DNA of 39,079 bases, taken from the IMG/VR virus record IMGVR_UViG_3300045988_151092, one strand, 5' to 3'. The translations under genes were made by a program, and so were the position numbers. Numbering within the stretch: position 1 is the first letter of the stretch; every line of letters starts with the position of its first letter. Shown one piece after another: positions 4,846-20,033 of the stretch. Source of the stretch: a virus. The notes beneath the pieces were generated by a model. That model was not told the DNA's origin, ran no database searches, and was given only the letters and a program-made list of their open reading frames with translations.

Positions 4846-5130
4846 ATGGAAAATAATAAATATGTATTCGTAAAGGATTTTGATACAGCTTTAGTTCAAT
4901 TAGGAGAGATTCTTGATAACTTTAACGATAATAGAAATTTTGAGGTTACAGATGATGATATAAGAGCTTTAGAATTAATTATTAAAGCACATAGGAACGG
5001 ATTAAGTACTAAAGATTTAGTTAGTCTATTATCACAAAGAGAAGGGGTAGAATTAATAAGTGTAGATCCACATACTGAAAAAAATATAACAATATGTGGA
5101 CCAGCAATAGTTTTAAATATAATTGATTAG
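4846..5130 (+). CDS. Hypothetical protein (start moved to the RBS-backed ATG)
   Basis: AGGAGG at 4831-4836 precedes the ATG at 4846 (MENNKYVF...). The tracked upstream start overlaps the previous gene. Confidence 0.6.
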   Translation: MENNKYVFVKDFDTALVQLGEILDNFNDNRNFEVTDDDIRALELIIKAHRNGLSTKDLVSLLSQREGVELISVDPHTEKNITICGPAIVLNIID

Positions 5131-5336
5131 CGAACCTTACTGTATCTATAAGAATTCTTTATAAAAGCATGATGATATTTGCCTTTAGATGAAGCGTTTA
5201 AAAGCCCTTCAAATATATTCTGTGGAACATTGTAGTAATCATAAACTCCAGAATGAAAGGCAATTCTTAAGGTAGCAGTACTTGAATCATAACCAACCGC
5301 AACTAAGTTGCTTGATGATACAGGTATCATATTCAT
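5127..5336 (-). CDS. KTSC-domain small protein, the only minus-strand gene inside the early operon
   Basis: SSNLVAVGYDSSTATLRIAFHSGVYDYYNVP..F..L matches the KTSC domain pattern. AGGAGG lies 8 nt upstream of the ATG at 5336. Confidence 0.6.
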   Translation of the reverse strand: MNMIPVSSSNLVAVGYDSSTATLRIAFHSGVYDYYNVPQNIFEGLLNASSKGKYHHAFIKNSYRYSKVR

Positions 5337-5428
5337 AAAAAACACCTCCTCTCAATATAAGTGTACAACCTTTAAATTAAAAAGTTTGTAGAAATGTGTT
5401 GAATGGAGAAGAGGAAAGGAGAAAAATA

Positions 5429-5593
5429 ATGAAACAATTAAAAAGATTAACTCAAAAACAAAAGAAATTATTTAAAGAATTATATGGAGTGAAGGAACCT
5501 TCCAAGAGATTTGGAGTTCATAGAGTTACTAAGGATGGCATTATATTTTGGGATAAGCTAGAAAATAAAGCTATGGATCCAATAAGAATTTAG
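5429..5593 (+). CDS. Hypothetical small basic protein
   Basis: RBS GGAAAGGAG precedes the ATG at 5429 (MKQLKRLTQKQKK...). Confidence 0.5.
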   Translation: MKQLKRLTQKQKKLFKELYGVKEPSKRFGVHRVTKDGIIFWDKLENKAMDPIRI

Positions 5594-5608
5594 TTAGGAG
5601 TAGTAGAA

Positions 5609-5719
5609 ATGAGAAAAGTTAATACAGGTTGCTTAGTAATTTTAATTGTACTAATTGTAATTTGGAGCATTATCTATTATGTAGTTTATAAAATATTAGG
5701 TTGGTTAGTTTTATGTTAG
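5609..5719 (+). CDS. 36-aa hydrophobic peptide (single TM)
   Basis: Hand translation gives MRKVNTGCLVILIVLIVIWSIIYYVVYKILGWLVLC. AGGAG lies 8 nt upstream. Confidence 0.4.
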   Translation: MRKVNTGCLVILIVLIVIWSIIYYVVYKILGWLVLC

Positions 5720-5956
5720 AACTAGCTAAGAAGATTACAAAAAATGTACAAGAAAGACTAAGCAAACTAACAATAGACGAAACTATAAATGTTTTAATAG
5801 AGGAAGAAATAAAAAAGAGAGTACCAAGGCACCGACCAAAGTAGCCAAGGCACTCAAGAAATAAATCTCAAGGATATATTACCACTAGGAATGGATTTAG
5901 ACAATGGTGAAATTTATGATATTGAAACTGGAGAAACAGTAAAGGAGCTGTAACTT

Positions 5957-6145
5957 ATGGGCAATTTACCAGATTGTTGTTATGAGTATAGATTCAATAG
6001 AGAAGAGCCAAGAGCTGTAGAAACTTGTACTGAATGTGGTTATAGCATATATGCAGGTGAAAGCTATTACTCTATTGGAGATAAGATAATATGCTGTGAA
6101 TGTATAGAGGATTTTAAGGAAGAAGCTAAAGATACTAAATTTTAA
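5957..6145 (+). CDS. Small Cys-rich zinc-ribbon protein
   Basis: Contains the CxxC pairs TCTECG ... CCECI. An RBS is present. Confidence 0.55.
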   Translation: MGNLPDCCYEYRFNREEPRAVETCTECGYSIYAGESYYSIGDKIICCECIEDFKEEAKDTKF

Positions 6146-6162
6146 AATAGGAGGAAAAAGTT

Positions 6163-6816
6163 ATGCCAGAAACAAAGAAGCTTAACATATATCAGAAAAT
6201 ACAAAAGGCTAGGGTAGATTTACAAAATAAAGATTTAAAGAAAACAGGATATAACAAGTATTCAAATTATAAATATTTTGAATTAGGAGATTTCTTACCA
6301 CATATCAATGATATTTGTAATGAGATTGGATTATATACAGAGTTTAGTTATGAAGAGAAGTTAGCAACTTTAACAATATATAATACAGAAAATTTAGAAG
6401 AAAAAAGAATATGGACAACACCAGTTGAGGTAGCCACATTAAAAGGATGCAGTACTATTCAAAATATAGGTGGTACTCAAAGTTTTGCAAGAAGATATTT
6501 ATATATGATGGCTTTTGAAATTGCTGAAACTGATGTAATAGATGGTGGAGCAGTTGATGAAGATGCGGAATTAGGAAAGCAGAAAATAGGACAGGCTCAT
6601 GTATTAACAATTAATAGTTTAATACAAGAAACTGAAACAGACAAAAAAGAGTTTTTAGCTTGGGCAGGAGTTAATAGAGTGGAAGATATAAAAAATGAAG
6701 CGGTAGGAACTTGTCTAACTATGCTTAATAAAAAGAAAATATTAAAAGAAAAAAGAGAGCAAGAGGAATTAAAGCAAATAGAAGCAGAGCAACAACAAAG
6801 AGATTTTGATTTTTAG
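6163..6816 (+). CDS. erf: Erf-family single-strand annealing recombinase
   Basis: By eye it aligns with P22 Erf (YNKYSNYKYFELGDFL ; GGTQSFARRYLYMMAFEI). Confidence 0.8.
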   Translation: MPETKKLNIYQKIQKARVDLQNKDLKKTGYNKYSNYKYFELGDFLPHINDICNEIGLYTEFSYEEKLATLTIYNTENLEEKRIWTTPVEVATLKGCSTIQNIGGTQSFARRYLYMMAFEIAETDVIDGGAVDEDAELGKQKIGQAHVLTINSLIQETETDKKEFLAWAGVNRVEDIKNEAVGTCLTMLNKKKILKEKREQEELKQIEAEQQQRDFDF

Positions 6817-6828
6817 GAGAGTTGAGAA

Positions 6829-7740
6829 ATGAAAGAGATACAAATAAATAAAGAATTACCAGTAATAAAAATGAACTTTGAAGAAGTTAAAGGATCACTA
6901 CAAGAAACTATGAAAAAGTTTGAGGGAATTATAGTTACAGAAGAAAGTTTAAAAGACTGTAAAGCAACTCAAAAAGATTTGGCAGGCCTTAGAAATAAGA
7001 TAGATACCTATAGAAAAGATGTTAAAAGAGAGATGTTAACTCCTATCGATATATTTGAATATCAATGTAAAGAGCTAATATACCTTATAGCGGATGTAGA
7101 AAAACCAATAAAAGAAGGAATAAAAGTATTTGATGATAAGCGCAGGGAAGAGAAAAGACAAAAAGCATTGGAGCTTATTAAAGAAAGTATAACTAAGCAT
7201 AATCTAAGCAAAGAATATGCTTCAAAGCTTACTGTAAAAAATGAATATTTAAACCTAAGTAAAAGCTTAAAAAGTGTTAGGGAAGATATAGAATCAAGAG
7301 CTTTATTATTAGAAAGAGAGCAGGAAGATGAAAAGCAAAGAAAAGAAATGCTTAGAGTTTCAATAGAAAATGCTATAAGTGTAGCTAATGAAGGTATTAA
7401 TACTAAGTTAAAATTTGAGAACTTTACTAAGTATATAGAATTTGGATGGTCTTTAGATAGAATTTTAAAAGAAATTAATGATAAGGCAACTATGATAAAG
7501 GAAGCTGAAAAACCAAAGGAGCAACCTAAAGTTGAAGTTAAAGAACCAGTTCAAACACCTTTAGATATCTCTAAACCACTTGAAAATGTTAAAAAAGAGG
7601 TCGAAGAAGAAATTAGGCAAGATAAATTCTTTGTGGATGTTTATGTAGAACATAATTTTGAAATGATCCAGGCTTTAAGTAAATTCTTAAAAGATAATGG
7701 ATATAACTATGAGGTTCATAAAAAAGGAAAAGTTAAATAG
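6829..7740 (+). CDS. DUF1351-like recombination/replication-associated protein
   Basis: The N-terminal pattern (LPVIKMNFEEVKGSL...TEESLKDCKATQKDLAGLRNKID) and the position after erf both fit. Confidence 0.55.
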   Translation: MKEIQINKELPVIKMNFEEVKGSLQETMKKFEGIIVTEESLKDCKATQKDLAGLRNKIDTYRKDVKREMLTPIDIFEYQCKELIYLIADVEKPIKEGIKVFDDKRREEKRQKALELIKESITKHNLSKEYASKLTVKNEYLNLSKSLKSVREDIESRALLLEREQEDEKQRKEMLRVSIENAISVANEGINTKLKFENFTKYIEFGWSLDRILKEINDKATMIKEAEKPKEQPKVEVKEPVQTPLDISKPLENVKKEVEEEIRQDKFFVDVYVEHNFEMIQALSKFLKDNGYNYEVHKKGKVK

Positions 7741-7753
7741 GAAAGCTTAGGAG

Positions 7754-7951
7754 GTGCTTAAGTTGGAAATAAAGTTAGAGGAAGTTAAGAAGTACGGAAA
7801 AGAGGAGAACTTCTTTATAGATATAAGAGATACTGAAAGGGTTGTATTAAGCATAAAGGATAGGGATGACATTATAGTACCAATGGATGAAGCTTCTTTT
7901 AATGAGCTAAGAGAAAAGATAAATGAAGCTTACGAGTTAAGACAGATGTAA
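7754..7951 (+). CDS. Hypothetical protein (the start may be TTG at 7763)
   Basis: The AGGAGG at 7749-7754 is better spaced for the TTG at 7763. Confidence 0.5.
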   Translation: MLKLEIKLEEVKKYGKEENFFIDIRDTERVVLSIKDRDDIIVPMDEASFNELREKINEAYELRQM

Positions 7952-7963
7952 GGAGTGTAAGGA

Positions 7964-8701
7964 TTGAAAAACTTAGTAGAAGGTTGGTTAAAACTTTATA
8001 GAAGTATTCAGAATCATTGGTTATGGGAAGATAAGCCATTTAGTAGAGGACAAGCCTTTGTAGACCTTCTACTAATGGCAAACCATAAAGACAATAAGAT
8101 ATTATTTAACGGTGAGTTGATAGAGGTGAAAAGAGGCTCAAGAATTACATCATTAAGGCAACTAAGTGAGGCATGGGGATGGAGCACTAAAAAGACCAAA
8201 AAGTTTTTAGAACTTCTTGAAAAAGATAACATGATAACTGTAAAAAGTGACAATAAGAAAACACTTGTAACCATTGAAAACTATGGGGTTTACCAAGAAG
8301 TAGGAAACACAGAAGAAACACAGGAGAAACACCAAGGAAACAGTGAGGAAACGCAGAGGAAAAACAAAAGAAATTCAAAAGAAATTCAAAAAAAAACAAA
8401 CAAGAATGATAAAGAAAGATATAAGAATGATAAAGAAAGATATAAGAATGATAAAGAAAGAAAAGAAGAGGAATCCCAACCAGCCTCTCCTCGATTCTAT
8501 CCTTCTCCTATTCATGAGTTATTAGCTAATTCAGATTCTTTATCACCAGTAAGTTACAAAACATTTTTTGAAAATGCTGATATTAGAGAAGAGGTTGGAG
8601 TTATACAAATTAAACCAGAGAATGAGTTTTATAAAGGAGCTATTAAAAAGTATATTCCAACATTAGAGATTGAAACTCATAAAAAAATAGAGGTGATTTA
8701 A
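7964..8701 (+). CDS. Replisome organizer / DnaD-like replication initiator with a low-complexity repeat linker
   Basis: N-terminal winged-helix pattern WLKLYRSI..HWLW..KPFSRGQAFVDLLLMAN. The KNDKERY x3 repeat is encoded by DNA iterons. Confidence 0.6.
   Translation: MKNLVEGWLKLYRSIQNHWLWEDKPFSRGQAFVDLLLMANHKDNKILFNGELIEVKRGSRITSLRQLSEAWGWSTKKTKKFLELLEKDNMITVKSDNKKTLVTIENYGVYQEVGNTEETQEKHQGNSEETQRKNKRNSKEIQKKTNKNDKERYKNDKERYKNDKERKEEESQPASPRFYPSPIHELLANSDSLSPVSYKTFFENADIREEVGVIQIKPENEFYKGAIKKYIPTLEIETHKKIEVI
8402..8461. repeat. About 2.9 tandem copies of the 21-bp unit aagaatgataaagaaagatat (candidate origin iterons), preceded by an 11-bp x2 repeat at 8368-8389
   Basis: Copies at 8402-8422 and 8423-8443 are identical. 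The third copy at 8444-8461 is truncated. Confidence 0.85.
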
Positions 8702-8875
8702 GTGAAAGTTAATTTACTAGAAGTTTATTCAGTACATGAACTAGCATTAAAGACTTATAGAGATTTAGCTAAAAGAAAAATAGAAAGAAATAGAGAAGTA
8801 GCTGCTTATTTAAAAATTAGAGAAATAAGTGGAAGAAAGAAATGGAATGTTAGATTTGGAGGATATAGGTGGTAG
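8702..8875 (+). CDS. Hypothetical 57-aa protein (GTG start)
   Basis: Translated by hand. AGAGGTG RBS lies upstream, and the ORF is translationally coupled between the rep and rusA genes. Confidence 0.35.
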   Translation: MKVNLLEVYSVHELALKTYRDLAKRKIERNREVAAYLKIREISGRKKWNVRFGGYRW

Positions 8876-9251
8876 TAGTTACAGGAAAAATAAGAGGAAA
8901 GGCTAGACCTAGGGTATGTAGGGGTCATGCCTTTACCCCTAAAGATACAGTTCAATATGAAAAGTTATTAAGAGATTGTTATAAGCAACAAGATGGGAGA
9001 TACCTAGAAGGCTCTATAAAAGCTTTAATAATTGCTTACTATAAAAAAATCGTAAGTCATATAGTAAAAAACGTGTACAAGCCATAAGGGATGGGTTAGA
9101 AAAGCCAACAAAGAAACCAGATTCGGATAACATAGGAAAGATTATATTAGATAGCTTAAATGGTGTTGATTATAAAGGTGATAGTCAGATTATAGAGTTT
9201 AGTTTTATTAAGAGATATACGGAAGAACTTGAAAGAGTTGAATTAAGGTAA
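8869..9251 (+). pseudogene. rusA: RusA-family Holliday junction resolvase split by a 1-nt frame change in an A7 run (9043-9049)
   Basis: Frame A carries GKIRGKARPR..TPKDT..YE and stops at 9085-9087. The -1 frame, open from 9045, carries KSYSKKKRVQAIRDGLEKPTKKPDSDNIGKIILDSLNG..GDSQI and stops at 9249-9251. Confidence 0.7.
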
Positions 9252-9371
9252 ATAGAAATTGTTCTTTTAAAATTTAATAATATGGTGTTTAAATAATATA
9301 AAAATTGTATTGAAGATATTTATTGGATATAATTATACAGTAATATTAGTTTTATGAATAGGAGGTTAATT

Positions 9372-10067
9372 ATGGAAATTAGAATTATATATAATTATGT
9401 AATACAATCTTGTAGTAAAGGATATCCAGTTATAACTGAAGATATAATAAAGATAAATAATGAAACCACATTAGAAGATATATTTAAATATTCAAATCAA
9501 GAAAATGCTGATGTCTCTAAATATTATAAGATAAGTGGTGGATATTATTTTAATAGAAAGATATTACCATATATAAAAAATAAAAATAATGAAGTTATAT
9601 GGGAACCAGAATATAAAAATATTAAAGTATTGGATTTTATTTTCACTCATGATATTCAAGATAATACAATATATGCTGATACAGAGATAACTCAAGCTGG
9701 AGGACCGGAATTAAATGATGTTTCACAGTTATGGAATCATTGTTATCCAATTATTGATCAAATTGTAACAGTAGTATGTTTTTATGAGTTAAGTATTAAA
9801 TTAAGTAATTTTATAAAAGGTTTATTCAAGGGAAAAAAGATTGAACAAGTACCACCAAATTCATTTATAGAATTTATTCTAAGTAAGGATAAATGGAATC
9901 ATTATGAATTAGCAGAATATATGGAAATAACTCCAGAAGAAAGTAAAAATCTTTTAAAAGGATTTGGTTATAAGTGGGATAATTCTAAAAAGATATATAT
10001 AAATAGAAATAATCTTAAAGAAATCTTAGAAAAATTTTCAAAAATATCAATTTATAAAAATTTATAA
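9372..10067 (+). CDS. Orphan moron protein A (about 231 aa), no recognisable domain
   Basis: Has its own TTGTAT(9305)-17-TATAAT(9328) promoter, a GGAGG RBS at 9361 and its own terminator. Confidence 0.7.
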   Translation: MEIRIIYNYVIQSCSKGYPVITEDIIKINNETTLEDIFKYSNQENADVSKYYKISGGYYFNRKILPYIKNKNNEVIWEPEYKNIKVLDFIFTHDIQDNTIYADTEITQAGGPELNDVSQLWNHCYPIIDQIVTVVCFYELSIKLSNFIKGLFKGKKIEQVPPNSFIEFILSKDKWNHYELAEYMEITPEESKNLLKGFGYKWDNSKKIYINRNNLKEILEKFSKISIYKNL

Positions 10068-10495: not shown

Positions 10496-11104
10496 ATGAT
10501 GAATTTTATGGATAATTTATTTACTATTTATAAGACGGATGATGATTTTGAAAAATCTATAAAGGAAGAATTAAACAATATAAAGTTGGAACTAAATTCA
10601 GATATAAAATTTAAATTAGAAAAAGACCATTGTCCAGCTGTATCTGGCGAACTTGCTGGACAAGTTATACACATATTAAATTCTGATCCTGTTGGAGCTT
10701 TTATTAATTTATGTGAATTGGGTGCAATAGCTTATAATGTTATTAAATTTTTAAAAAGTAAAAATAAAGAATATAGAATTAGTAAAAAGTTATGCAAAGC
10801 TCTAGCTTTATTTAAATTAAAGAATGAAAATAAAGAATCAACTGAAGGGTGTAATTTAGATAAAGCTATAGTATATGGTCCAATGAAAATAGATAATATT
10901 AATGGAATAATATCTATGGAAGATTTTGCTATAGTTAATGACGCAACAGGAGAAATAGGGTATTTGATAGCTTATGCTTTTCAAAAAGGAGAAAAAAGAA
11001 CAAGAACAATATGGAATTTAATTAATACAAAAGGAGAAATTATTGTTTCATGGACTACTCAAACTTTAACAGAAAATCTTCCAGAGTTTTTTAAAAATAA
11101 TTAA
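10496..11104 (+). CDS. Orphan moron protein B (202 aa), no recognisable domain
   Basis: AAAGGA RBS. The upstream motif and the terminator are both shared with moron A. Confidence 0.7.
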   Translation: MMNFMDNLFTIYKTDDDFEKSIKEELNNIKLELNSDIKFKLEKDHCPAVSGELAGQVIHILNSDPVGAFINLCELGAIAYNVIKFLKSKNKEYRISKKLCKALALFKLKNENKESTEGCNLDKAIVYGPMKIDNINGIISMEDFAIVNDATGEIGYLIAYAFQKGEKRTRTIWNLINTKGEIIVSWTTQTLTENLPEFFKNN

Positions 11105-11116
11105 TAAAATTAATTG

Positions 11117-11150
11117 CCGTATCATTCATATGAATATACGGTATTTTTTT
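11117..11150 (+). terminator. Intrinsic terminator of moron B, a near copy of the one at 10085-10118
   Basis: The hairpin ccgtatcattca-ta-tgaatatacgg is followed by tattttttt. Confidence 0.8.
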
Positions 11151-11185
11151 ATTCAAATTTACAAGTGAATATTAGAGGTGATTAG

Positions 11186-11662
11186 ATGATAGATAAAAAC
11201 ATATTTAGAGAAACAGAAGTATTACTTAAGAACTACAGTAAGTTAGAATCAGAGATAGAGTTAATAAAATTAGAGATTAAAGATATACAGGAATCTTATA
11301 CTGGATGTGGAGCAATAGTATATAGTGAGAAAAGTGGTCCGACAAATAAGTTTAGTAGCATGGTTGAAGATGAAGTAATAAGGAAAGAGAAAGATCTATT
11401 CTATCTTAAGAGAGATTTAGATTATAAGGTTAGATTAAAGAGAAGAATAGATTTAGCTATACAAACTCTTGGAACAAAAGAAGAGAGAGATTTAATTAGA
11501 TTAAGATATATAAATCAACCTAAAGTTAGTTGGGGAACAGTTGCTAGACATTTAAAATATAATAAAGATTATTGCAGGAAGGAATTAAGACCTAAGGTTA
11601 TAAAGCAAATTGCAGATTTTGTATTCTATAATCCAGGAGTTCAAGAAAGGTTTATTATATAA
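11186..11662 (+). CDS. ArpU/RinA-like late-gene transcriptional activator
   Basis: The size, the N-terminal pattern (TEVLLKNY..LE.EI) and the C-terminal EERDLIRLRYI...W..VA..L HTH-like segment fit this family. Classically this gene lies just before terS. Confidence 0.65.
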   Translation: MIDKNIFRETEVLLKNYSKLESEIELIKLEIKDIQESYTGCGAIVYSEKSGPTNKFSSMVEDEVIRKEKDLFYLKRDLDYKVRLKRRIDLAIQTLGTKEERDLIRLRYINQPKVSWGTVARHLKYNKDYCRKELRPKVIKQIADFVFYNPGVQERFII

Positions 11663-11663
11663 A

Positions 11664-11705
11664 TATACCCCCTATTTATACCCGTTTAATACCCCACGTA
11701 TACCC
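11664..11705 (+). repeat. Four phased direct repeats of (T/A)ATACCC
   Basis: Copies start at 11664, 11677, 11688 and 11699 (spacing 13, 11, 11), immediately after the late-activator stop codon. Confidence 0.85.
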
Positions 11706-11820
11706 ACTTTTATGTGTTATTATGTAATTGTGGATAGGGTAAAGCGTTCATTGATGACCTCCTGGATGTAAATTAAAACTTAACTAACGGAAAAGCAAGG
11801 TGTAAAAGCCTTGCTAACAT

Positions 11821-11874
11821 GGAAGGTCACTAGCTGGAGATGCTTAAAGATGGTTCGAATCCATTGCCTTCCCC
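11821..11874 (+). ncRNA. tRNA-like element 1: acceptor stem, short GG-loop hairpin and T-arm, with no anticodon arm
   Basis: GGAAGGT (11821-27) pairs with GCCTTCC (11866-72). The T-arm is GATGG-TTCGAAT-CCATT (11849-65). The hairpin is AGC-TGGAGAT-GCT (11832-44). Confidence 0.4.
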
Positions 11875-11967
11875 TTTTATAAATTTTTAATCACAATTGA
11901 TAATTTAAAAGTTCTTATTTAAAAATCTTATTTCCCTTACATTGCAGGATTAAGTTCTTGCTTTTAT

Positions 11968-12056
11968 GGAGATATATCTCAATAGGTAGAGTATCGCTTT
12001 AGTAATGTTATAGGTTACTAGGGCGAAGGTTAGAGGTTCAAATTCTTTTATCCCCA
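11968..12056 (+). tRNA. tRNA-like element 2 (89 nt) with a 13-bp anticodon-type arm. Possibly a pseudo or atypical tRNA; the loop centre is TAT
   Basis: Acceptor GGAGATA/TATCCCC has one A-C mismatch. The D-arm carries A14, G18, G19 and A21. The arm pairs 11994-12006 with 12014-12026 around the loop GTTATAG. The variable loop is AGGTT, the T-arm is AGAGG-TTCAAAT-TCTTT, and the discriminator is A. Confidence 0.4.
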
Positions 12057-12187
12057 ATATTAAAACTTAATAAAATATCTCTTTGGACTTTAGGGGTTAC
12101 AGAGAGAAAAAGAATCTAGTTCTAGGTACTGGATTATTTTGTATTTAATAGTTAAATAAATATAAATTTACTATACATAGATATATT

Positions 12188-12196
12188 TGTTATAAT
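12188..12196 (+). promoter_or_regulatory. Extended -10 promoter element (TGtTATAAT) for the NACHT gene
   Basis: tgttataat lies 29 nt upstream of the ATG, with an AAGGGGG RBS at 12211-12217. Confidence 0.5.
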
Positions 12197-12224
12197 ATGA
12201 ATATATATTTAAGGGGGAATAGAA

Positions 12225-14243
12225 ATGGAAGAACTATTGAATAAAGGAATAACTTTGATAGCGACTACTTGTGTAGGTGAAATTATAAAATCAACTGTAA
12301 AAGAGTATGTTTCTCCACGATTAAAAACATTAAGTGACAATTCACTTTTAGATAAAGATAGAGTAAAAGTAGAAGAGAATATTTTGGATTATTTAGAAAG
12401 ATCTTATAAAAATAATAAATATATAAATACTATAGTGTTTAAAAATCAACAAAAAAAATTAGAAGATTTATATATACCATTAAAGGTAGTTAAATATATA
12501 GGTAAAAATGAAAAAAATAATTTTGAACTTTGTATAGATAAATATGATGAAAAGTTCATTCCATTACATAATAAAGTTTTGTTAGTAGATAATGCAGGTA
12601 TGGGAAAATCAACTATAATGAAATTTTTATATTTAAGTACGATTAAAGAAAATAAAGGGATACCAATATTAATAGAATTAAGAAAGTTAGATAAAAATAC
12701 ATCAATATTAGATTTTATAGTTAAAGAAATTAATGGAATTGATACTGAGTGTAATAAAAAGGTTATAGCTGAATTAATAAGAGGAGGTGATTTTATATTT
12801 TTCTTTGATGGATATGATGAAATAACATTAGAAAATAAAGATATTATTACAAAAAATATTCAAGAATTCATAGATAAAGCTCATAATAATAAATTTATAA
12901 TTTCATCTAGAGATGAGGATGAACTTACATCTTTTGGGGATTTTCAAAGATTTTATATAAAAGCACTTGCTAAAGAAGAAGCATATCAATTAATTAGCAA
13001 ATATGACGAAAATGGAGATTTATCAAAAGAATTAATAGATAATCTTGAAAATGAAGAAAATCTAAAAATATTGAAAGAATTTTTAGAAAATCCGCTTATG
13101 GTTTCTCTTTTATATAAAGCATTTGAATATAATAAAAGTATACCATACAAAAAGCACATATTTTATAAACAAGTATACGATGCATTGTTTGAGCAACATG
13201 ATTTATCAAAAGGTGGTGCATATAAACATATAAAAAGAAGTGGATTGGATATAGATGATTTTCATAAAATATTACGATGCTTAGCTTTTACTACATTGTC
13301 AAAGGGAATAGAATATTCAAAAGAAGATTTAATCAAATATATAGATTTTGTAAAAGAAAAAAATTCAGAAATAGAATTTAAAACGAGCTTTTTTATTTGG
13401 GACATAGTTCATTCAATACCATTATTCATAAAGGATGGATTGGAATATAAGTGGATACACAAATCATTTCAGGAGTATTTTGCTGCAGCTTATATATGCA
13501 ATGATTCTAAAAAGCAATCGGATAAATTTCTAAAAAAAATATCAAGTGAAGTTAAAATAGATAAATATTATAATATATTAGACTTTTGTTATGATATGGA
13601 TTACAAGAGTTTTTCTAGAAGTATATTATATCCTGTTATTGAAGAATTTATAAAATATTATAATGCTAGCTACAATAATCAATATTATTCTAATATTGAT
13701 GAAAAACATATTAATATTAGAAAAAGTCTAGAATTTAGTTATGAAAAAATATTTATAAAAAGATTAAATGAAAACACTAGGCATTTACGAATTAAAAAAG
13801 ACGTTAATGATACATTTAGTTATACATTTAGTGATGTAAATTTTGATGGAGCAGTTAAGTTTATAATAACTAGCAAAGATTCGCTAGGTAATTTAAAGGA
13901 AGTTGCAGCAAATATAGGTAGTAAAAGAAAAACATCATTAATGAAGTTGTTATACAATAAAAGGAATAGTATTGTAAGTGAAATAGAAGAAGTTAAGAAT
14001 ATGAAAGGAGATATTACAGAAATAGTTCAAAATTATGAATGGAATTTACTAAATGATGATGTAGAAAATATATTTAATAGAAAAGATAAATTTCTTATCA
14101 TACATAATTGGTTTCAAAAATATGCTTCAAATGATCTTGATGAAATACCTGCAATAATTTTTAACTATAGTGAGTGCATTAAATTAAAAAATAATATAGA
14201 TAAAGAAATTATTGAAGAAGAAAGTGACTTAGACTTTTTGTAG
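12225..14243 (+). CDS. NACHT-family STAND P-loop NTPase (bacterial NLR-like, candidate anti-phage sensor)
   Basis: Motifs seen: Walker A VDNAGMGKST (aa 121-130), ILIELRKL, Walker B DFIFFFDGYDE (aa 189-199), FIISSRDE, ENPLMVSLLY and HKSFQEYFAAAY. The N-terminal region (about 110 aa) and C-terminal region (about 240 aa) show no recognisable domain or repeats. Confidence 0.8.
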   Translation: MEELLNKGITLIATTCVGEIIKSTVKEYVSPRLKTLSDNSLLDKDRVKVEENILDYLERSYKNNKYINTIVFKNQQKKLEDLYIPLKVVKYIGKNEKNNFELCIDKYDEKFIPLHNKVLLVDNAGMGKSTIMKFLYLSTIKENKGIPILIELRKLDKNTSILDFIVKEINGIDTECNKKVIAELIRGGDFIFFFDGYDEITLENKDIITKNIQEFIDKAHNNKFIISSRDEDELTSFGDFQRFYIKALAKEEAYQLISKYDENGDLSKELIDNLENEENLKILKEFLENPLMVSLLYKAFEYNKSIPYKKHIFYKQVYDALFEQHDLSKGGAYKHIKRSGLDIDDFHKILRCLAFTTLSKGIEYSKEDLIKYIDFVKEKNSEIEFKTSFFIWDIVHSIPLFIKDGLEYKWIHKSFQEYFAAAYICNDSKKQSDKFLKKISSEVKIDKYYNILDFCYDMDYKSFSRSILYPVIEEFIKYYNASYNNQYYSNIDEKHINIRKSLEFSYEKIFIKRLNENTRHLRIKKDVNDTFSYTFSDVNFDGAVKFIITSKDSLGNLKEVAANIGSKRKTSLMKLLYNKRNSIVSEIEEVKNMKGDITEIVQNYEWNLLNDDVENIFNRKDKFLIIHNWFQKYASNDLDEIPAIIFNYSECIKLKNNIDKEIIEEESDLDFL

Positions 14244-14268
14244 AACTCTCATTTGAGAGTTCTTTTTA
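14242..14268 (+). terminator. Intrinsic terminator after the NACHT gene
   Basis: The hairpin agaactctc-attt-gagagttct is followed by a T-run. Confidence 0.8.
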
Positions 14269-14302
14269 TTTTACAAAACAAACGAATAGGTGAGGTGGTG
14301 AT

Positions 14303-15067
14303 ATGGCTAGAGCAAGAAGTCCAAACCGAGATAAAGCATTTGAGATATACAAGAATCACAATGGAAATATTGCTAATAGAGAAATTGCGAGAACTTTGGG
14401 CATATCAGAAAAAACTATATCTGGATGGAAAGCTAAAGATAATTGGAGTGATAAATTAAATGGAGTACTCCAAACAGATTTACGGAGTACTCCAAAAGAA
14501 AAGAGAAAAAAGGGAGGTCAACCTAATAATAAAAATTCAGTTGGTTGTGGAGCACCTAAAGAAAATAAAAATGCAGAAAAACACGGATTCTTTTCTAAAT
14601 ATCTTCCAGATGAAACTAAAGAGATTATTGAAGATGTTAAAGAATTAGATCCGATAGAAATCTTATGGGGAAATATACAAATTCAATATGCAGCAATAAT
14701 AAGAGCTCAAAGAATTATGTATGTAGAATCTAAAGAGGAAATGATAAAGGAGCTTAAGAAAAAGAAAGAACATACTGATGACTATGGCGAAAGTACAGAG
14801 GTAGAATATGAGTTCCAATTTGCTTGGGATAGACAAGCTACATTCTTGCAAGCGCAATCAAGAGCAATGAAAACTCTTGAAAGTATGATAAATAGCTATG
14901 ATGAAATGATTCATAAGAATTGGGATAGTGTTACTGAAGAACAAAAAACTAGAATTGAAGTGTTGAAATCAAGAATAGTTAAAGATAATTCTAAGAATAA
15001 TACTAACTCTACAGCTAAGTTAGATTTTATATTAGGACAAATTAAGGAAAGAAATAAAAATGAGTAA
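14303..15067 (+). CDS. terS: Terminase small subunit
   Basis: N-terminal HTH reads NREIARTLGISEKTISGWKAKDNW, and the GAPKENKNAEKHGFFSK motif is present. It lies immediately upstream of TerL. Confidence 0.85.
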   Translation: MARARSPNRDKAFEIYKNHNGNIANREIARTLGISEKTISGWKAKDNWSDKLNGVLQTDLRSTPKEKRKKGGQPNNKNSVGCGAPKENKNAEKHGFFSKYLPDETKEIIEDVKELDPIEILWGNIQIQYAAIIRAQRIMYVESKEEMIKELKKKKEHTDDYGESTEVEYEFQFAWDRQATFLQAQSRAMKTLESMINSYDEMIHKNWDSVTEEQKTRIEVLKSRIVKDNSKNNTNSTAKLDFILGQIKERNKNE

Positions 15068-16427
15068 TGAATATAAGTTATCAGATAAGTATTTAGACTT
15101 TTTAGAACATAGAGCACCAGTAGAGGCATTGGAGGGAACAACCGCGGCAGGAAAAACTACAGTAGGAATACTAAAGTTTATGTTAATGGTTGCAGAATCT
15201 CCCAAGAAAATGCATGTTATTGCTGCTAAAACAACTGGAGTTGCTGAAAAGAACTTAATACAAAAGGAATATGGGATTACTGATGTATTTGGTGATTTAG
15301 TCAAGTATAACGGTAATGGTGATAAAGATAATAAAATACCTCATATAAGATATATAACTCCTAATGGTGAGAAAATAATATACATACTAGGTTATGATAA
15401 CGTAGATAAGTGGAAAATGGCCTTAGGTTCTCAATTTGGATGTGTACTAATAGATGAGGTTAACACAGCTAGTATTGAATTTGTTAGGGAGATATGTACA
15501 AGAAATGATTATCTTATGATGACACTTAATCCGGATGATCCTAACTTACCTATATATTCAGAGTTTATTAATTGTTGTAGACCATTAGAAAAATATAAGA
15601 AAGATGTACCAGTAGAAATATTAGGGCAACTCAATTCAGAAGAGAAACCTAATTGGACCTACTGGTTTTTTACTTTCTATGATAATGCATCTTTAGATGA
15701 AGAAGCTATTGAAAAGAAAAAGACGAGTGCTCCTAAAGGTACTAAGCTATATAAAAATAAGATACTAGGGTTAAGAGGAAGAGCAACAGGATTAATATTC
15801 TCTAATTTTGAAAGAAAGAATAATGTATTATCTAAAGAACAGTTTATTAAACAAATAAAAGATAAGAAATTAAAGTTTGTTCAATTTACAGCAGGGTTAG
15901 ATACAGCATATTCTCAAAATAGTCCTGATACCTTTGCATTTACTTTCTTAGGTATTACAGATAAGAAAGAATTAATTGTATTAGATGAAGAGGTATATAA
16001 CAATAAAGACTTAGAAACTCCATTAGCTCCTAGTGATATAGCTCCTAAATATTTTAAGTTCTTAGAAAAGAATAGAAAGGAATGGGGATTTGTTAGAGAT
16101 GTATTTGTAGATTCAGCAGACCAAGCAACTATAATGGAGCTTAAGAAGTTTAAGAGAACTAATCCATGTATGTATAACTTTATTAACTCTTATAAGAAAG
16201 TAACTATACTAGATAGAATACATTTAGCTTTAGGTTGGATTAATACCAATGGTAAAGTATTTTATTATGTTTTAGATACTTGTAAAGAGCATATAAGAGA
16301 GTTAGAGTGTTATAGTTGGAAAGAAGATAAATACGAGCCAGAGGATGCAAACGACCATACAATCAACTCTAGTCAGTATGCGTGGATACCTTTTAGAAAA
16401 TTGATAGGAGATTATAAGGAGGAATAG
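15060..16427 (+). CDS. terL: Terminase large subunit (PBSX-type)
   Basis: Shows Walker A GTTAAGKTT, the Walker B-like CVLIDEV, and a C-terminal nuclease-like DSADQA / DANDH. Confidence 0.9.
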   Translation: MSNEYKLSDKYLDFLEHRAPVEALEGTTAAGKTTVGILKFMLMVAESPKKMHVIAAKTTGVAEKNLIQKEYGITDVFGDLVKYNGNGDKDNKIPHIRYITPNGEKIIYILGYDNVDKWKMALGSQFGCVLIDEVNTASIEFVREICTRNDYLMMTLNPDDPNLPIYSEFINCCRPLEKYKKDVPVEILGQLNSEEKPNWTYWFFTFYDNASLDEEAIEKKKTSAPKGTKLYKNKILGLRGRATGLIFSNFERKNNVLSKEQFIKQIKDKKLKFVQFTAGLDTAYSQNSPDTFAFTFLGITDKKELIVLDEEVYNNKDLETPLAPSDIAPKYFKFLEKNRKEWGFVRDVFVDSADQATIMELKKFKRTNPCMYNFINSYKKVTILDRIHLALGWINTNGKVFYYVLDTCKEHIRELECYSWKEDKYEPEDANDHTINSSQYAWIPFRKLIGDYKEE

Positions 16428-16429
16428 AA

Positions 16430-17950
16430 ATGGGGTGGTTTAAGAGTATGTTAACTAAAGCAGCAATTAAATATTTAAATGTTCAACCAGCATTAACTAA
16501 TCCTATTACTATACAAGAAGCTTATACATTTGAAACTAATGTAATTAGAAATAAGCTTTGGTATAGGGGAGAACCATACGAACTGGACCAATTCTTTAAA
16601 AATATATCAAGTGATCCAGTAAATAAAGCTAGGTTTTGGAGTGCTGTTCCAAGTGAAGATTTAAGTATAAGAAAAATACATAGTGGATTACCTGCAATGA
16701 TAGCTGATAAGTTAAGTGATATAGTTGTAGCTGACTTAGATAGTATAGAGGTTACTGGAGAGACTGATAATACATTATGGGAAGAAATAAGAAAAGATAA
16801 TAAGTTTGATGATATGCTAGGTGATATAATTGCTACTACATTAGTTAGTGGTGATGGGGCTTTTAAACTATCTATAGATACAGAGATAAGCAAATATCCA
16901 ATAATAGAGTTTTTCGATGGTGATAAGGTTGAATATATAACTCAAAGAGGAAGATTAAAAGAAATAAAGTTCTATACTTTTTATACTAAAAATAATAGAC
17001 AATATAAATTAAGTGAAACTTATGGAAAAGGATATATCAACTATAATTTATATGATAGTAATGGAAATGAAGTTTCTTTAAATACACTTAATGAAACTAG
17101 AGAACTTGCAGATGTAACATATAAAGATTATTTCATAATGGCAATACCATTAATGTTCTTTAAATCTCCTAAGTTTGAGGGAAGAGGTAAAAGTATATTT
17201 GATAATAAATCAGATGCCTTTGATGCATTAGATGAAGTTATATCTCAATGGATAGATGCTATTCGTGATGGAAGAGTTCAAAAGTATATACCAGAGGATT
17301 TAGTTCCAAAAGATATTAATGGTAACTTAATGAAACCTAATCCATTTGATAATAGATTCTTAAAAGTAGGTTCTAGCCTTGCAGAAGATACAAAAAATGA
17401 GATAGATATGAAGCAAGCTAATATAAATTATGAGGCTTATGTTGAGAGTTATTCAAATGCTATTGATATGTGTCTACAAGGTATAATAAGTCCTAGCACT
17501 TTAGGAATAGACCTTAAAAAAACAGATAATGCAGAAGCTCAAAGAGAGAAAGAAAAAACTACTTTATATACTAGAGGAAAAATGGTTGATATATTAACAG
17601 AGGTTATACCAGAGTTAGTTAATATAATCTTAAAGACTAATAATGTATTAAATAAAAAGAATACTGGAGAATATGAAGTAAGCATTGTATTTGGAGAATA
17701 TGCAAGTCCTAGTTTTGATTCAGTAGTAGAAACTGTAGGAAAAGCTAAAACATATGGAGTAATGTCCATAGAGCAATGTATTGAGGAAATGTATGGAGAT
17801 ACATGGACAGATGAAGAAAAGGAAGAAGAGATACAAAGAATAAAGAAACAGAATGGCTATCTTGTGGCTGAAGAACCTAAGACAGTAGATAATTATGATA
17901 TGTTATATACTTATGATAATGAGGTTGAAACAGATGGACAAGAGGGATAA
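16430..17950 (+). CDS. Portal protein (SPP1 gp6-like)
   Basis: 506 aa, directly after TerL, with an acidic C-terminus. Confidence 0.85.
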   Translation: MGWFKSMLTKAAIKYLNVQPALTNPITIQEAYTFETNVIRNKLWYRGEPYELDQFFKNISSDPVNKARFWSAVPSEDLSIRKIHSGLPAMIADKLSDIVVADLDSIEVTGETDNTLWEEIRKDNKFDDMLGDIIATTLVSGDGAFKLSIDTEISKYPIIEFFDGDKVEYITQRGRLKEIKFYTFYTKNNRQYKLSETYGKGYINYNLYDSNGNEVSLNTLNETRELADVTYKDYFIMAIPLMFFKSPKFEGRGKSIFDNKSDAFDALDEVISQWIDAIRDGRVQKYIPEDLVPKDINGNLMKPNPFDNRFLKVGSSLAEDTKNEIDMKQANINYEAYVESYSNAIDMCLQGIISPSTLGIDLKKTDNAEAQREKEKTTLYTRGKMVDILTEVIPELVNIILKTNNVLNKKNTGEYEVSIVFGEYASPSFDSVVETVGKAKTYGVMSIEQCIEEMYGDTWTDEEKEEEIQRIKKQNGYLVAEEPKTVDNYDMLYTYDNEVETDGQEG

Positions 17951-18893
17951 GGATATACAATTATTAGCTGATATACTTAGAGGAATTACTGAAAATAAAA
18001 TAAAAGAAAATGCTAAAAAGGAAAGAGATAAGTCTTATGATATTAGAAATATATTCGAGCAAATGGAGCTTGATTTAATTTCTAGTATGCATAGGGCTTT
18101 TTATTTTCACCAAGCTGAGCAGAGTAAAGAAGGATTTCAATGGGAACAATGGCAAAGGACTAAGCTTAGAGAAATTGAAAAGTATAGAAAGAGAAATAAG
18201 AAACTAGTTGAGGAATATAACAAGCCTATCCAAGAAGCTATAAACAGAGAGATTCAAGGGAATTTTACTAAAGGTCAAGAAAATACAGAAAAGTTAATAG
18301 ATGAAGTAAAGATAAAGTTTCCAGAGAATATAAAAGAACCTCAAACAGTTAGAGAGTATATTGCTAAAGAACTAGGGAAAAAGGCTACTCCACAAGTTGA
18401 AGAAAACTTCTTTGGTATTAACGAAAAGAAACTTAATGCATTACAAGAAACTATTACAAATGATTTAAAAAAGGCTCAAATGTCAGTTTTAAGAAAGATG
18501 GATGATGTATATAGGCAAATAATATTTAAAACTCATGTATATTTGCAAAGTGGTACTAAGACTATTAATCAAGCTATAGATATGGCTACTAAGGATTTTC
18601 TTGAGAAAGGTATAAATAGTATAACTTATAAGAATGGTAAACAAGTTAATATTGCTAGTTATGCAGAGATGTGTTTAAGAACAGCAAGTCAAAGAGCTAC
18701 ATTTTTAGGTGAAGGAAAGAAAAGAGATGAATATGGAATACATTTAATAGTTGTTACGGCTCATGCTAATACTTGTAAAATGTGTGAACCATGGCAAGGA
18801 AAAGTATTGATTGATGATATATTTTCTCATGGTACTAAAGAGGATGGAGATTATCCATTATTAAGTGAGGCTGTAGGAAAGGGATTGCTCCAT
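17934..18893 (+). CDS. Head morphogenesis protein (SPP1 gp7 / Mu F-like), exon 1
   Basis: GAGG RBS precedes the ATG at 17934. The frame ends ...GKGLLH, and the stop at 18894 is the first triplet of the intron. The hallmark continuation PNCRH is found at 19758. Confidence 0.8.
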
Positions 18894-19757
18894 TGAATTA
18901 GAAGTTTGGGTGGAGCAAGTAAAAATAAACGTTGTGAACCTCATTACAAAGAGGGTGTATCAAGTATTGATGCTAACGGTGAAAGGTGGGAAACCCAATA
19001 CCGTGCTAAGTATTGTAAATATGTCTACACTCATGATATAATCCGTATAAGGAGATGAATTATATGGAAATTTGGAAAGATGTCATAGGTTACGAAAAGA
19101 TTTATCAAGTAAGTAATACTGGTAAAGTTAAAAGAATTGGTACTTATAAAAATCAATCTAATAAGGAGTGGATTAGTAATAGAATATTAAAACCTGCTAT
19201 TAAGAAGAATCGTTATATGTTTGTAGGTCTTAGCAAGGACGGCAAAGTTTCTAGTAAGCATATACACAGACTTGTTGCAGAAGCATTCATTCCTAATCCT
19301 TTTAATAAATCTACTGTAAATCACAAAGATGGTAATAGAAGTAATAATACAGTAGAAAATCTTGAATGGGCAACATATTTAGAAAATAATATCCATTCAA
19401 TAAAGGTGTTAAAGAGAGATACAAAAAATAGTTCTGATTCAAGACCAGTGTTACAATTTGATAAACAAGGAAACTTTATAAAAGAATATCCATCTATGAG
19501 AGAAGCACAAAGACAAACGGGTATAGATGCAATAGATAAGGTGTGTAATCATGTTAAGTATAGAAAGACAGCAGGTGGGTATAAGTGGGAATACAAAGAC
19601 AATTACAATAAAAGTGTAGAGACTATCGAAACCACATCAGATGATGGAAGGGAGTAGAGTAGGTTGGAGATGTACCAATCGAAGCGCAACGGATATAAAA
19701 AGAGATTAACCTTTATGGTTAGTCTCTTTTTATATTATGAGATAGTCCAATTAAAAG
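18894..19757 (+). mobile_element. Group I self-splicing intron (864 nt) carrying an HNH homing endonuclease ORF
   Basis: Exon 1 ends in T (18893) and the intron ends in G (19757). The internal guide agtttgg-gtggagca (18903-18917) pairs with exon 1 tgctccat (P1, with a terminal U.G) and with exon 2 ccaaact (P10). Confidence 0.85.
19064..19657 (+). CDS. HNH homing endonuclease (NUMOD4 + HNH_3 type), intron-encoded
   Basis: Shows MEIWKDVIGYEKIYQVSNTGKVKR and NHKDGNRSNNTVENLEW. The GGAG at 19051 is best spaced for the ATG at 19064. Confidence 0.9.
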   Translation: MEIWKDVIGYEKIYQVSNTGKVKRIGTYKNQSNKEWISNRILKPAIKKNRYMFVGLSKDGKVSSKHIHRLVAEAFIPNPFNKSTVNHKDGNRSNNTVENLEWATYLENNIHSIKVLKRDTKNSSDSRPVLQFDKQGNFIKEYPSMREAQRQTGIDAIDKVCNHVKYRKTAGGYKWEYKDNYNKSVETIETTSDDGRE

Positions 19758-20033
19758 CCAAACTGTAGGCATACATTAGCAACTTACTTCCTAGGTATAA
19801 CTAGAATACAAACAATACCAGATGGTGAAGATGCTATTAAACTTTATGAGGCTGAACAGAAACAGAGATATTATGAAAGACAATTGAGAAAGTGGAAGAG
19901 ACTCAAAGCTGGTACTTGTGATGAAGAAAATAAAGAGATAGCAAGTAAAAAGGTTAAAGGGTTAGAAAAAGTTTTAAAGGATCATTTGGAAATTAATAAA
20001 GAGCTTAGAAGGAATCATTATAGAGAAAAATAG
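19758..20033 (+). CDS. Head morphogenesis protein, exon 2 (PNCRHTLATYFLG...REK)
   Basis: Exon 2 joins exon 1 in frame (999 nt + 276 nt) and restores the conserved GLLHPNCRH motif of the gp7/MuF family. Confidence 0.8.
   Translation, partial: PNCRHTLATYFLGITRIQTIPDGEDAIKLYEAEQKQRYYERQLRKWKRLKAGTCDEENKEIASKKVKGLEKVLKDHLEINKELRRNHYREK

Follow-up and report, generated by a model that had tools for sequence, protein, structure and literature searches.

Bacterial NACHT proteins with short, non-repeat C-terminal extensions form a monophyletic group, clade 14, which is an exception among NACHT clades in having no fused N-terminal effector domains (bioRxiv 10.1101/2022.07.19.500537). The short C-terminal domain of this group, SNaCT, was first defined on bNACHT01 and diversifies faster than the NACHT module (Kibby et al., bioRxiv 10.1101/2022.07.19.500537), and both bNACHT01 and bNACHT11 protect as single genes (10.1101/2022.07.19.500537; 10.1101/2024.12.17.629029). 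In bNACHT11, the SNaCT domain binds several unrelated phage proteins through beta-augmentation and hydrophobic contacts, the protein is an ATP-bound heptamer whose last seven residues (633-639) dock into the neighbouring SNaCT domain and are needed for oligomerisation, and an N-terminal extension of ~45 residues (MDPIT), not resolved in the structure, is needed for plasmolysis-like cell death (10.1101/2024.12.17.629029). Here we compare with these systems a gene in the IMG/VR virus record IMGVR_UViG_3300045988_151092, a stretch of 39,079 nucleotides (the window) that is a Clostridium perfringens prophage integrating by means of a large serine recombinase. At 12225..14243 on the + strand, where a preliminary sequence-only reading had placed it, the window carries an ATG-initiated coding sequence for a 672-residue, bNACHT01-like, NLR-related protein composed of an N-terminal extension, a NACHT module and a SNaCT5 domain. 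Judged from its sequence, the gene is real, well formed and probably functional, and it is probably an ordinary member of this already described antiphage NLR family. The "minimal, effector-less" arrangement that had seemed puzzling in the sequence-only reading is what defines the bNACHT01-like clade 14 (Kibby et al.), and the new effector mechanism or partner that it had been thought to need has a precedent of another kind in bNACHT11, where the short N-terminal extension is the effector and a partner is not needed.

A NACHT core joined to a SNaCT5 domain

The NACHT NTPase core spans residues 113-457 (12561..13595, + strand) and consists of a nucleotide-binding domain (NBD) followed by helical (HD) and winged-helix (WHD) domains. 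Six NACHT motifs had been pointed out in it, and all of them lie at the expected places: Walker A GMGKST at residues 125-130, with K128; ILIELRKL at 148-155; Walker B FIFFFDGYDE at 190-199; ISSRDE at 226-231, with the sensor-1 arginine R229; NPLMVSLL at 289-296; and HKSFQEYFAAAY at 412-423, which begins with the WHD His412. When 40 homologs with identities down to 36% were aligned, G125-T130 including K128, D195, G196, D198, E199, S228, R229, P290 and H412-S414 were invariant, and the mean column entropy was 1.22 bits in the NBD and 1.28 bits in the HD/WHD. The AlphaFold2 model of the 672-residue protein (predicted local distance difference test score, pLDDT, 83.6; predicted template modelling score, pTM, 0.75) was then compared with the PDB using Foldseek, which returned 86 matches at E<=1e-3. 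NLRC4 (4kxf) came first with an E value of 1e-12, and NOD2, NLRP3 and NAIP5 were also found, down to 1e-9; the same four proteins are the top structural matches for bNACHT11 (10.1101/2024.12.17.629029). Because the model matches NLRC4, NOD2, NAIP5 and NLRP3, we regard the identity of the core as settled: the protein is a genuine NACHT/STAND NTPase, as the sequence-only reading had assigned it.

At the sequence level, Pfam NB-ARC scored 24.7 bits, above its cut-off of 23.5, and precomputed matches to Pfam NACHT (PF05729) are present in most of the homologs. A single-sequence search of the PDB sequences gave no match, and a search of the same sequences with the family profile gave none at E<=0.01. 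At E<=10, the family profile found weak NLRC4 matches, with NLRC4 at the top, in which the HKSFQEY stretch of the family aligns with FFHKSFQEY of NLRC4. Foldseek against viral structures (BFVD) returned one siphovirus NLR-like protein together with generic AAA+ clamp loaders, and was not informative.

The C-terminal region of about 240 residues, previously left unassigned, contains a full-length match to Pfam SNaCT5 (PF22711; E 1.2e-25, 91 bits against a cut-off of 27, profile positions 1-196 of 196) at residues 458-662 (13596..14210, + strand). This putative sensor domain has a mixed alpha/beta fold and is hypervariable: its column entropy is 2.57 bits, rising to 2.90 bits in residues 506-615, versus 1.22-1.28 bits in the NACHT parts, and a beta-hairpin at residues 544-564 of the AlphaFold2 model falls in the most variable stretch. 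The same disparity is seen within one species, where P0002, a C. perfringens homolog, shows 88% identity in the NBD and 43% in the SNaCT domain. No TPR, WD40 or LRR repeats were found in the Pfam scan, in agreement with what had been noticed by eye. The protein ends in an acidic-hydrophobic tail (14211..14240, + strand; …EIIEEESDLDFL). At least two acidic residues and a hydrophobic last residue characterise this tail in 92 of the 113 family members, the commonest ending being DFL, and similar C-terminal tails occur in other phage-borne SNaCT families.

Between the start codon and the P-loop lie roughly 124 residues (about 110 in the sequence-only reading, which had treated them as one region), and these proved to be of two kinds. 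About 70 of them, residues 41-112 (12345..12560, + strand), form a conserved pre-P-loop region with a helix at 43-65 followed by beta-hairpins; Y56, R59, Y61, the TIVFKNQQK stretch, Y83 and P85 are invariant or nearly so, and LYIPL is also conserved. This region belongs to the NACHT module and not to an effector domain. The family-to-family alignment described below starts at residue 65 and thus takes in part of it, and in bNACHT11 the ordered core begins at residue 43 (10.1101/2024.12.17.629029). The true extension is the remaining ~40 residues (residues 1-40; 12225..12344, + strand), a putative death effector with predicted helices at residues 2-28 and 30-37. It is rich in small and hydrophobic residues, has a low pLDDT at its tip in the AlphaFold2 model, and contains the most hydrophobic 19-residue window of the protein (Kyte-Doolittle value 1.08, well below the transmembrane threshold). 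No domain was found in residues 1-112 in Pfam, NCBIfam or PADLOC, and the earlier remark that no N-terminal effector is recognisable was correct as far as the Pfam scan goes. The N-terminal consensus of the family is M-E-x-I-I-x-x-G-x-x-L-x-A-T-T-G-x-x-E-L-x-K-x-x-V-x-T-Y-I-K-P-K-L, with E or D at position 2 in 56 of the 113 members. A few members start with MDPV or MDPA, and more distant SNaCT5 proteins start with MQPVT.

Kinship with the bNACHT01-like proteins was found through a tblastn search of phage records, which led to the Vibrio protein XLL20330.1, a carrier of SNaCT11. The note in its record is "NLR_like_bNACHT01", which is also what a DefenseFinder model is called. BLASTP aligned the window protein with XLL20330.1, labelled as bNACHT01-like by that record note, over residues 1-470 (24% identity, E 1e-32), and the alignment included the first 24 residues (MLEQILGAAVTGGLSTLASKIIKS versus MEELLNKGITLIATTCVGEIIKS). 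Comparison of the SNaCT5 and SNaCT11 families by hhalign gave a probability of 99.95% (E 4.9e-38) over residues 65-488, that is, the NACHT module and the first SNaCT helix. When the Vibrio protein was used as the seed of a homolog search, marine SNaCT11 proteins only were retrieved, none of them from Klebsiella or E. coli, and two MQPVT-type SNaCT5 genes had no megablast match among complete E. coli genomes. In PHROGs the window protein belongs to phrog_18297, annotated "unknown function". The PADLOC run that had been proposed as a check was carried out and gave 0 matches at E<=1, Avs models included. This result is uninformative for a defence role, and we rejected it as evidence against one: PADLOC-DB v2.0.0 appears to lack bNACHT models, and the protein labelled bNACHT01-like and three family members also had no relevant match.

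A mobile cassette at the late regulator-terS junction

The gene is prophage-borne and self-contained, as had been suggested, forming a cassette between the early and regulatory genes and terS. On its 3' side, terS starts at 14303 (NCBIfam TerS_not_xtmA, E 5.5e-80) and is followed by a PBSX-type TerL and a portal gene, which confirms one half of the earlier statement that the gene is wedged between a late activator and terS. The other half is less firm: the open reading frame (ORF) at 11186-11662 gave no match in the Pfam or NCBIfam scans, and its activator label comes from a precomputed DUF722 match and a phiCp-A homolog annotated "sigma factor".

The expression signals invoked earlier for an independent unit, an extended -10 at 12188 and a terminator at 14242, were both located. 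The first belongs to a sigma-70-type promoter-like site at 12167..12196 (+ strand), in which TTTACT (12167-12172) is separated by 18 nt from TG (12188-12189)-n-TATAAT (12191-12196); it ends ~28 nt 5' of the ATG and is the top scorer within 11000-15200 (10/12 plus TG). A putative ribosome-binding site, AGGGGGA, was read from the sequence at 12212..12218 (+ strand), its GGGGG Shine-Dalgarno element lying 8 nt 5' of the ATG. The terminator-like hairpin at 14242..14263 (+ strand) has a 9-bp stem followed by TTTTATTTTA, overlaps the NACHT stop codon and lies 40 nt 5' of terS; terminator-like sites numbered 4, versus 0.7 expected in shuffled sequences. The gene has a GC content of 20-26%, which resembles the early region and is slightly under the ~30% of the structural genes. 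A foreign origin based on composition was considered and rejected, the GC difference being too weak to serve as a signature.

Inside the coding sequence, just 5' of the SNaCT boundary, lies an A8 homopolymer (13532..13539, + strand; codons about 436-439). The near-identical allele in GCA_000255475.1 has A7 at this place, which splits the gene at the domain border into a 444-residue NACHT-only ORF and a 215-residue SNaCT-only ORF. Either a sequencing artefact or slip-strand on/off variation could account for this allele.

An identical protein is listed in 36 blocks of the assembly collection (many C. perfringens assemblies), and the gene together with its upstream 562 bp was identical in the three places checked. 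Homologs lie directly 5' of terS in another C. perfringens prophage (with a Terminase_2 terS), in C. difficile prophages (with GP3_package and Terminase_3) and in a C. kluyveri prophage, while a further homolog is one ORF farther from an HNH/Terminase_4/TerL_ATPase module. Among 20 close-family IMG/VR loci, TerL was found within three downstream ORFs in 13 and an integrase in 5. A distant family member sits at a prophage end, and the P0002 gene lies in a non-prophage chromosomal island. Phages CP51 and phiCp-A, close relatives of the prophage, have terminase genes 93-95% identical to those of the window and have no NACHT gene, which is also absent from phi3626, PhiS63 and phiSM101; in phiCp-A (MW478289.1 39414-40550), the slot in the order sigma factor, tRNA-Ser, X, terS is filled by a 378-residue PIN_8 (PIN-like nuclease) protein, which had no PADLOC match. 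Overall, the family NACHT was found in 228 GTDB species representatives from many phyla and in 67 IMG/VR viral contigs; among 50,697 records, a single isolated-phage genome carried it.

The distribution is consistent with a mobile single-gene defence cassette that occupies an accessory hot spot. A tie to the phage's own terminase, implied by the sequence-only reading, is weakened by it: homologs stand 5' of terS/TerL genes of five or more unrelated types, next to integrases or in an island that is not a prophage, and such varied loci argue against a specific partnership with the resident terminase.

Two further loci were recorded in passing. In L032 (IMGVR_UViG_3300029466_000091, 5001-9058), a family member is directly followed by a second, 661-residue NACHT protein with no SNaCT match in Pfam. 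Vibrio phage 10N.286.49.B11_PE003 (PQ189336.1 12520-14310), a 14.8-kb non-tailed temperate element of the Vinavirales, carries a bNACHT01-like SNaCT11 protein near its end, which indicates that NACHT-SNaCT cassettes ride very different kinds of temperate viruses.

A candidate sensor of superinfecting phages

We favour, with a probability of roughly 0.7, the explanation that the gene product is an abortive-infection (superinfection-immunity) sensor of the bNACHT01-like (clade 14) kind, which is carried by the prophage, works as a single protein and is directed against superinfecting phages. An antiphage sensor had also been the expectation of the sequence-only reading, and the architecture, the fold, the SNaCT5 domain and the cassette structure make this the best reading of the locus. 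On the model of bNACHT01 and bNACHT11, the gene would be transcribed in the lysogen from its own promoter, with the terminator insulating it from the late operon, and the product would be kept inactive as a monomer. Upon infection by another phage, one or more proteins of the invader would bind the hypervariable SNaCT5 domain, and the ATP-bound NACHT module (K128, D195/D198/E199, R229 and H412) would assemble into a ring, a step that the C-terminal tail may aid by docking on the neighbouring protomer as residues 633-639 do in bNACHT11. The ring would cluster the ~40-residue N-terminal helices, and the resulting damage to the membrane or osmotic barrier would kill the cell before the cycle of the invader ends, so that sister lysogens, and with them the prophage, are protected. 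The effector role of the N-terminal extension, for which bNACHT11 provides the analogy, is the weakest link in this chain. As for how self-activation is avoided, the simplest expectation is that the hypervariable SNaCT domain has been selected against binding resident proteins.

Several observations weigh against this explanation. Pfam NACHT (PF05729) itself scored 24.1 bits, just under its cut-off of 26.7. The promoter is plausible from its sequence and has no statistical support, since promoter-like hexamer pairs numbered 20 in the window versus 29 expected in shuffles of this 23% GC DNA. The N-terminus reads MEELL and has no proline at position 3, and so is not the MDPIT/MEPIS motif, of which D2 and P3 are essential in bNACHT11, although that motif marks the tested subgroup and is not a formal criterion of the clade. 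Moreover, hhalign of the SNaCT5 and SNaCT11 families aligned neither the N-terminal extensions nor the SNaCT cores. Because the extensions are left unaligned, the likeness of this N-terminus to MDPIT/MEPIS and to Bell/HeLo N-terminal helices is one of position and composition rather than of demonstrated homology. Plasmolysis is a phenotype established in E. coli, and it may fail to carry over to a Gram-positive envelope. Finally, a literature search found no experiment on this protein or on any SNaCT5 or Gram-positive member, and no paper linking NACHT proteins to C. perfringens prophages.

The N-terminus is also where the strongest of the alternatives begins. According to it, the protein is a defence sensor of the same family whose output differs: instead of acting on the membrane directly, the N-terminal helix would bring in or switch on a factor of the host or prophage, or else the family-specific "…T-Y-I-K-P-K-L" helix would represent a separate type of effector, adapted to Gram-positive cells. 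MDPIT is absent from the window protein and from most of its close relatives, the extension could not be aligned to the SNaCT11 family by hhalign and has a hydrophobicity under the transmembrane threshold, and the authors of the bNACHT11 study call it unclear how the extension perturbs membranes (10.1101/2024.12.17.629029). However, no neighbouring gene is conserved across contexts, the position, ~40-residue length and composition of the extension (an acidic second residue in 50% of members and a helix with many G, A, T and S residues) resemble bNACHT and Bell-type N-termini, and the first 24 residues do align with the Vibrio bNACHT01-like protein in BLASTP. We consider a different output unlikely.

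A related and speculative proposal, to which we give similarly little credence, is that the clostridial SNaCT5 family has a distinct N-terminal helix effector of ~35 residues, lacking MDPIT and suited to the Gram-positive envelope, and also that its placement at the terS junction may come from selection and not from a neutral insertion hot spot. One form such selection may take is that expression is switched off, or tolerance ensured, when the phage's own late transcription starts; if true, this would solve the problem of self-activation.

Some STAND systems comprise several genes. The window protein could accordingly be the sensor half of a two-gene system with a separately encoded effector, the "partner" option of the sequence-only reading, and the Pfam scan indeed found no enzymatic effector domain in it. 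Yet the gene is bounded by its own putative promoter and terminator, its neighbours differ wholly between loci apart from generic phage modules, and the characterised relatives bNACHT01 and bNACHT11 act as single genes, so that we regard a missing half as very improbable. Equally hard to sustain is a role in the phage's own cycle, such as sensing of terminase or packaging status, lysis timing or control of late transcription. It would explain the recurrent position before terS, the gene lying directly before terminase genes in 13 of the 20 close IMG/VR loci, in phage CDMH1 and in the C. difficile, C. kluyveri and C. perfringens prophages. However, the adjacent terS/TerL families (Phage_terminase, Terminase_2, GP3_package, Terminase_4 with HNH, and the PBSX type) are unrelated, and therefore no specific partner is conserved. 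CP51 and phiCp-A manage without the gene despite their near-identical terminases, phiCp-A having the PIN protein there, other copies lie by integrases or in the chromosomal island, and the hypervariability of the sensor is in keeping with an arms race. Immune mimics are indeed encoded by phages and a frameshifted allele exists, but an anti-defence decoy or inactive remnant that interferes with host NLR-like systems is scarcely credible when every catalytic motif is intact and does not vary among the 40 homologs, intact copies of identical sequence are widespread, and the frameshift falls in the A8 run of an older assembly and may be an artefact.

The preferred reading assigns a likely function to PHROG 18297 and to prophage genes of C. 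perfringens and C. difficile, that of phage CDMH1 among them, which have been called no more than "NACHT domain-containing" or "putative signalling/NTPase". It also suggests that the late regulator-terS junction of clostridial temperate phages is a hot spot for defence cargo, occupied by NACHT-SNaCT5 here, by the PIN-like protein in phiCp-A and by tRNA genes. Abortive-infection sensors encoded by prophages could limit phage therapy or biocontrol of C. perfringens and C. difficile, and the family offers a Gram-positive test case for whether the clade-14 N-terminal extension kills likewise outside E. coli.

Other features of the window and comparison with known systems

Two tRNA-related features precede the gene. 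The first, at 11968-12056 (+ strand), lies in the 562-bp spacer 5' of the NACHT gene and scored 44.6 bits in Rfam against a gathering score of 29 (E 2.7e-8). Its anticodon region contains an insertion of 21 nt, which can lengthen the anticodon stem (TAGTAA…TTACTA), and ARAGORN called no tRNA on the window; the feature is perhaps a phage tRNA that is aberrant or has decayed, or else a tRNA-like RNA. The second, a tRNA-like remnant at 11789-11873 (+ strand), is 80-90% conserved in the C. perfringens phages PhiS63, phi3626, phiCp-B and phiSM101. A complete tRNA-Ser(GCT) stands at its place in phiCp-A, whereas the window remnant is missing some 24 nt of the 5' portion as well as part of the variable arm. 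In another NACHT-bearing prophage, L008, a tRNA-Trp lies directly 5' of the NACHT gene. Farther upstream, 5' of the regulator, the ORFs at 9354-10067 (237 residues) and 10496-11104 (202 residues), both on the + strand, had no match in Pfam, NCBIfam or PADLOC.

A separate observation concerns the structural genes. At 17895-20033, a gene for minor capsid protein 2 (Phage_min_cap2, profile positions 12-261 of 366) has on its 3' side, at 19055-19657, a gene for a NUMOD4/HNH_3/NUMOD1 homing endonuclease. The short ORF 3' of the HNH gene is tagged Phage_min_cap2 in an identical prophage, and a related prophage has an uninterrupted 418-residue gene. This looks like a homing-endonuclease insertion splitting the minor capsid protein 2 gene; Rfam found no group I intron around the HNH gene.

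Among known systems, the HeLo/Hell/Bell/"Babybell" modules (HET-S, HELLP, Bab; Ibarlosa et al., 10.1101/2024.11.07.622273) share with the window protein a short N-terminal helix of small and hydrophobic residues after an acidic residue 2, a helix that activation is believed to free or cluster and that would then act on membranes (10.1101/2024.11.07.622273). The likeness is compositional only: the window protein has no detectable sequence or profile homology to these modules, and no Bell-type helical bundle was identified in it. The Avs/AVAST proteins (Avs1-5 and later ones) follow the same STAND logic, in which a C-terminal sensor binds a phage protein, oligomerisation follows and an N-terminal effector brings about abortive infection; Avs2 reportedly even has a "MEPIS"-like N-terminal motif. 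However, Avs proteins are far bigger and usually carry enzymatic effectors, and they have TPR-like or other large sensors that wrap around terminase, portal and similar targets, whereas the window NTPase belongs to the NACHT clade, matched no Avs model in PADLOC and has no repeat, nuclease, protease, SIR2 or TIR domain in Pfam.

Much closer are two phage-borne relatives. The Vibrio protein XLL20330.1 has the same architecture, an N-terminal helix that aligns and a temperate phage element (a non-tailed member of the Vinavirales) as its carrier, but it is 76 residues shorter and has SNaCT11 instead of SNaCT5, with a SNaCT core that cannot be aligned. Gp84 of the C. difficile phage CDMH1, annotated generically as "putative signalling/NTPase protein" with no defence assignment, is a true family member that is 44% identical over 95% of the length, matches SNaCT5 with E 3.7e-47 and occupies the same slot as the last gene before terS, although the phage belongs to another genus and has another terminase.

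The closest described group is the bNACHT01-like clade 14 itself (bNACHT01, 02, 11, 12 and 23). Like its members, the window protein is a single polypeptide in the range of ~600-690 residues in which a short N-terminal extension stands in place of a recognisable effector domain; it has a NACHT core with Walker A and B motifs, the sensor-1 arginine and the WHD histidine and a fold nearest to NLRC4 and NAIP, a short non-repeat SNaCT domain far more variable than NACHT, and a short C-terminal tail, and it is encoded as a single-gene cassette on a mobile element. It differs in that the tested members are enterobacterial whereas its host is a Gram-positive anaerobe, in having an N-terminus of the form MEELL… with a family-specific …TYIKPKL helix in place of MDPIT, and in being carried by a prophage at the early/late junction; its SNaCT domain is of Pfam family 5. 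Set against these systems, the protein opens no new category; what it adds is a Gram-positive prophage setting, a recurrent slot close to terS and an N-terminus that does without MDPIT.

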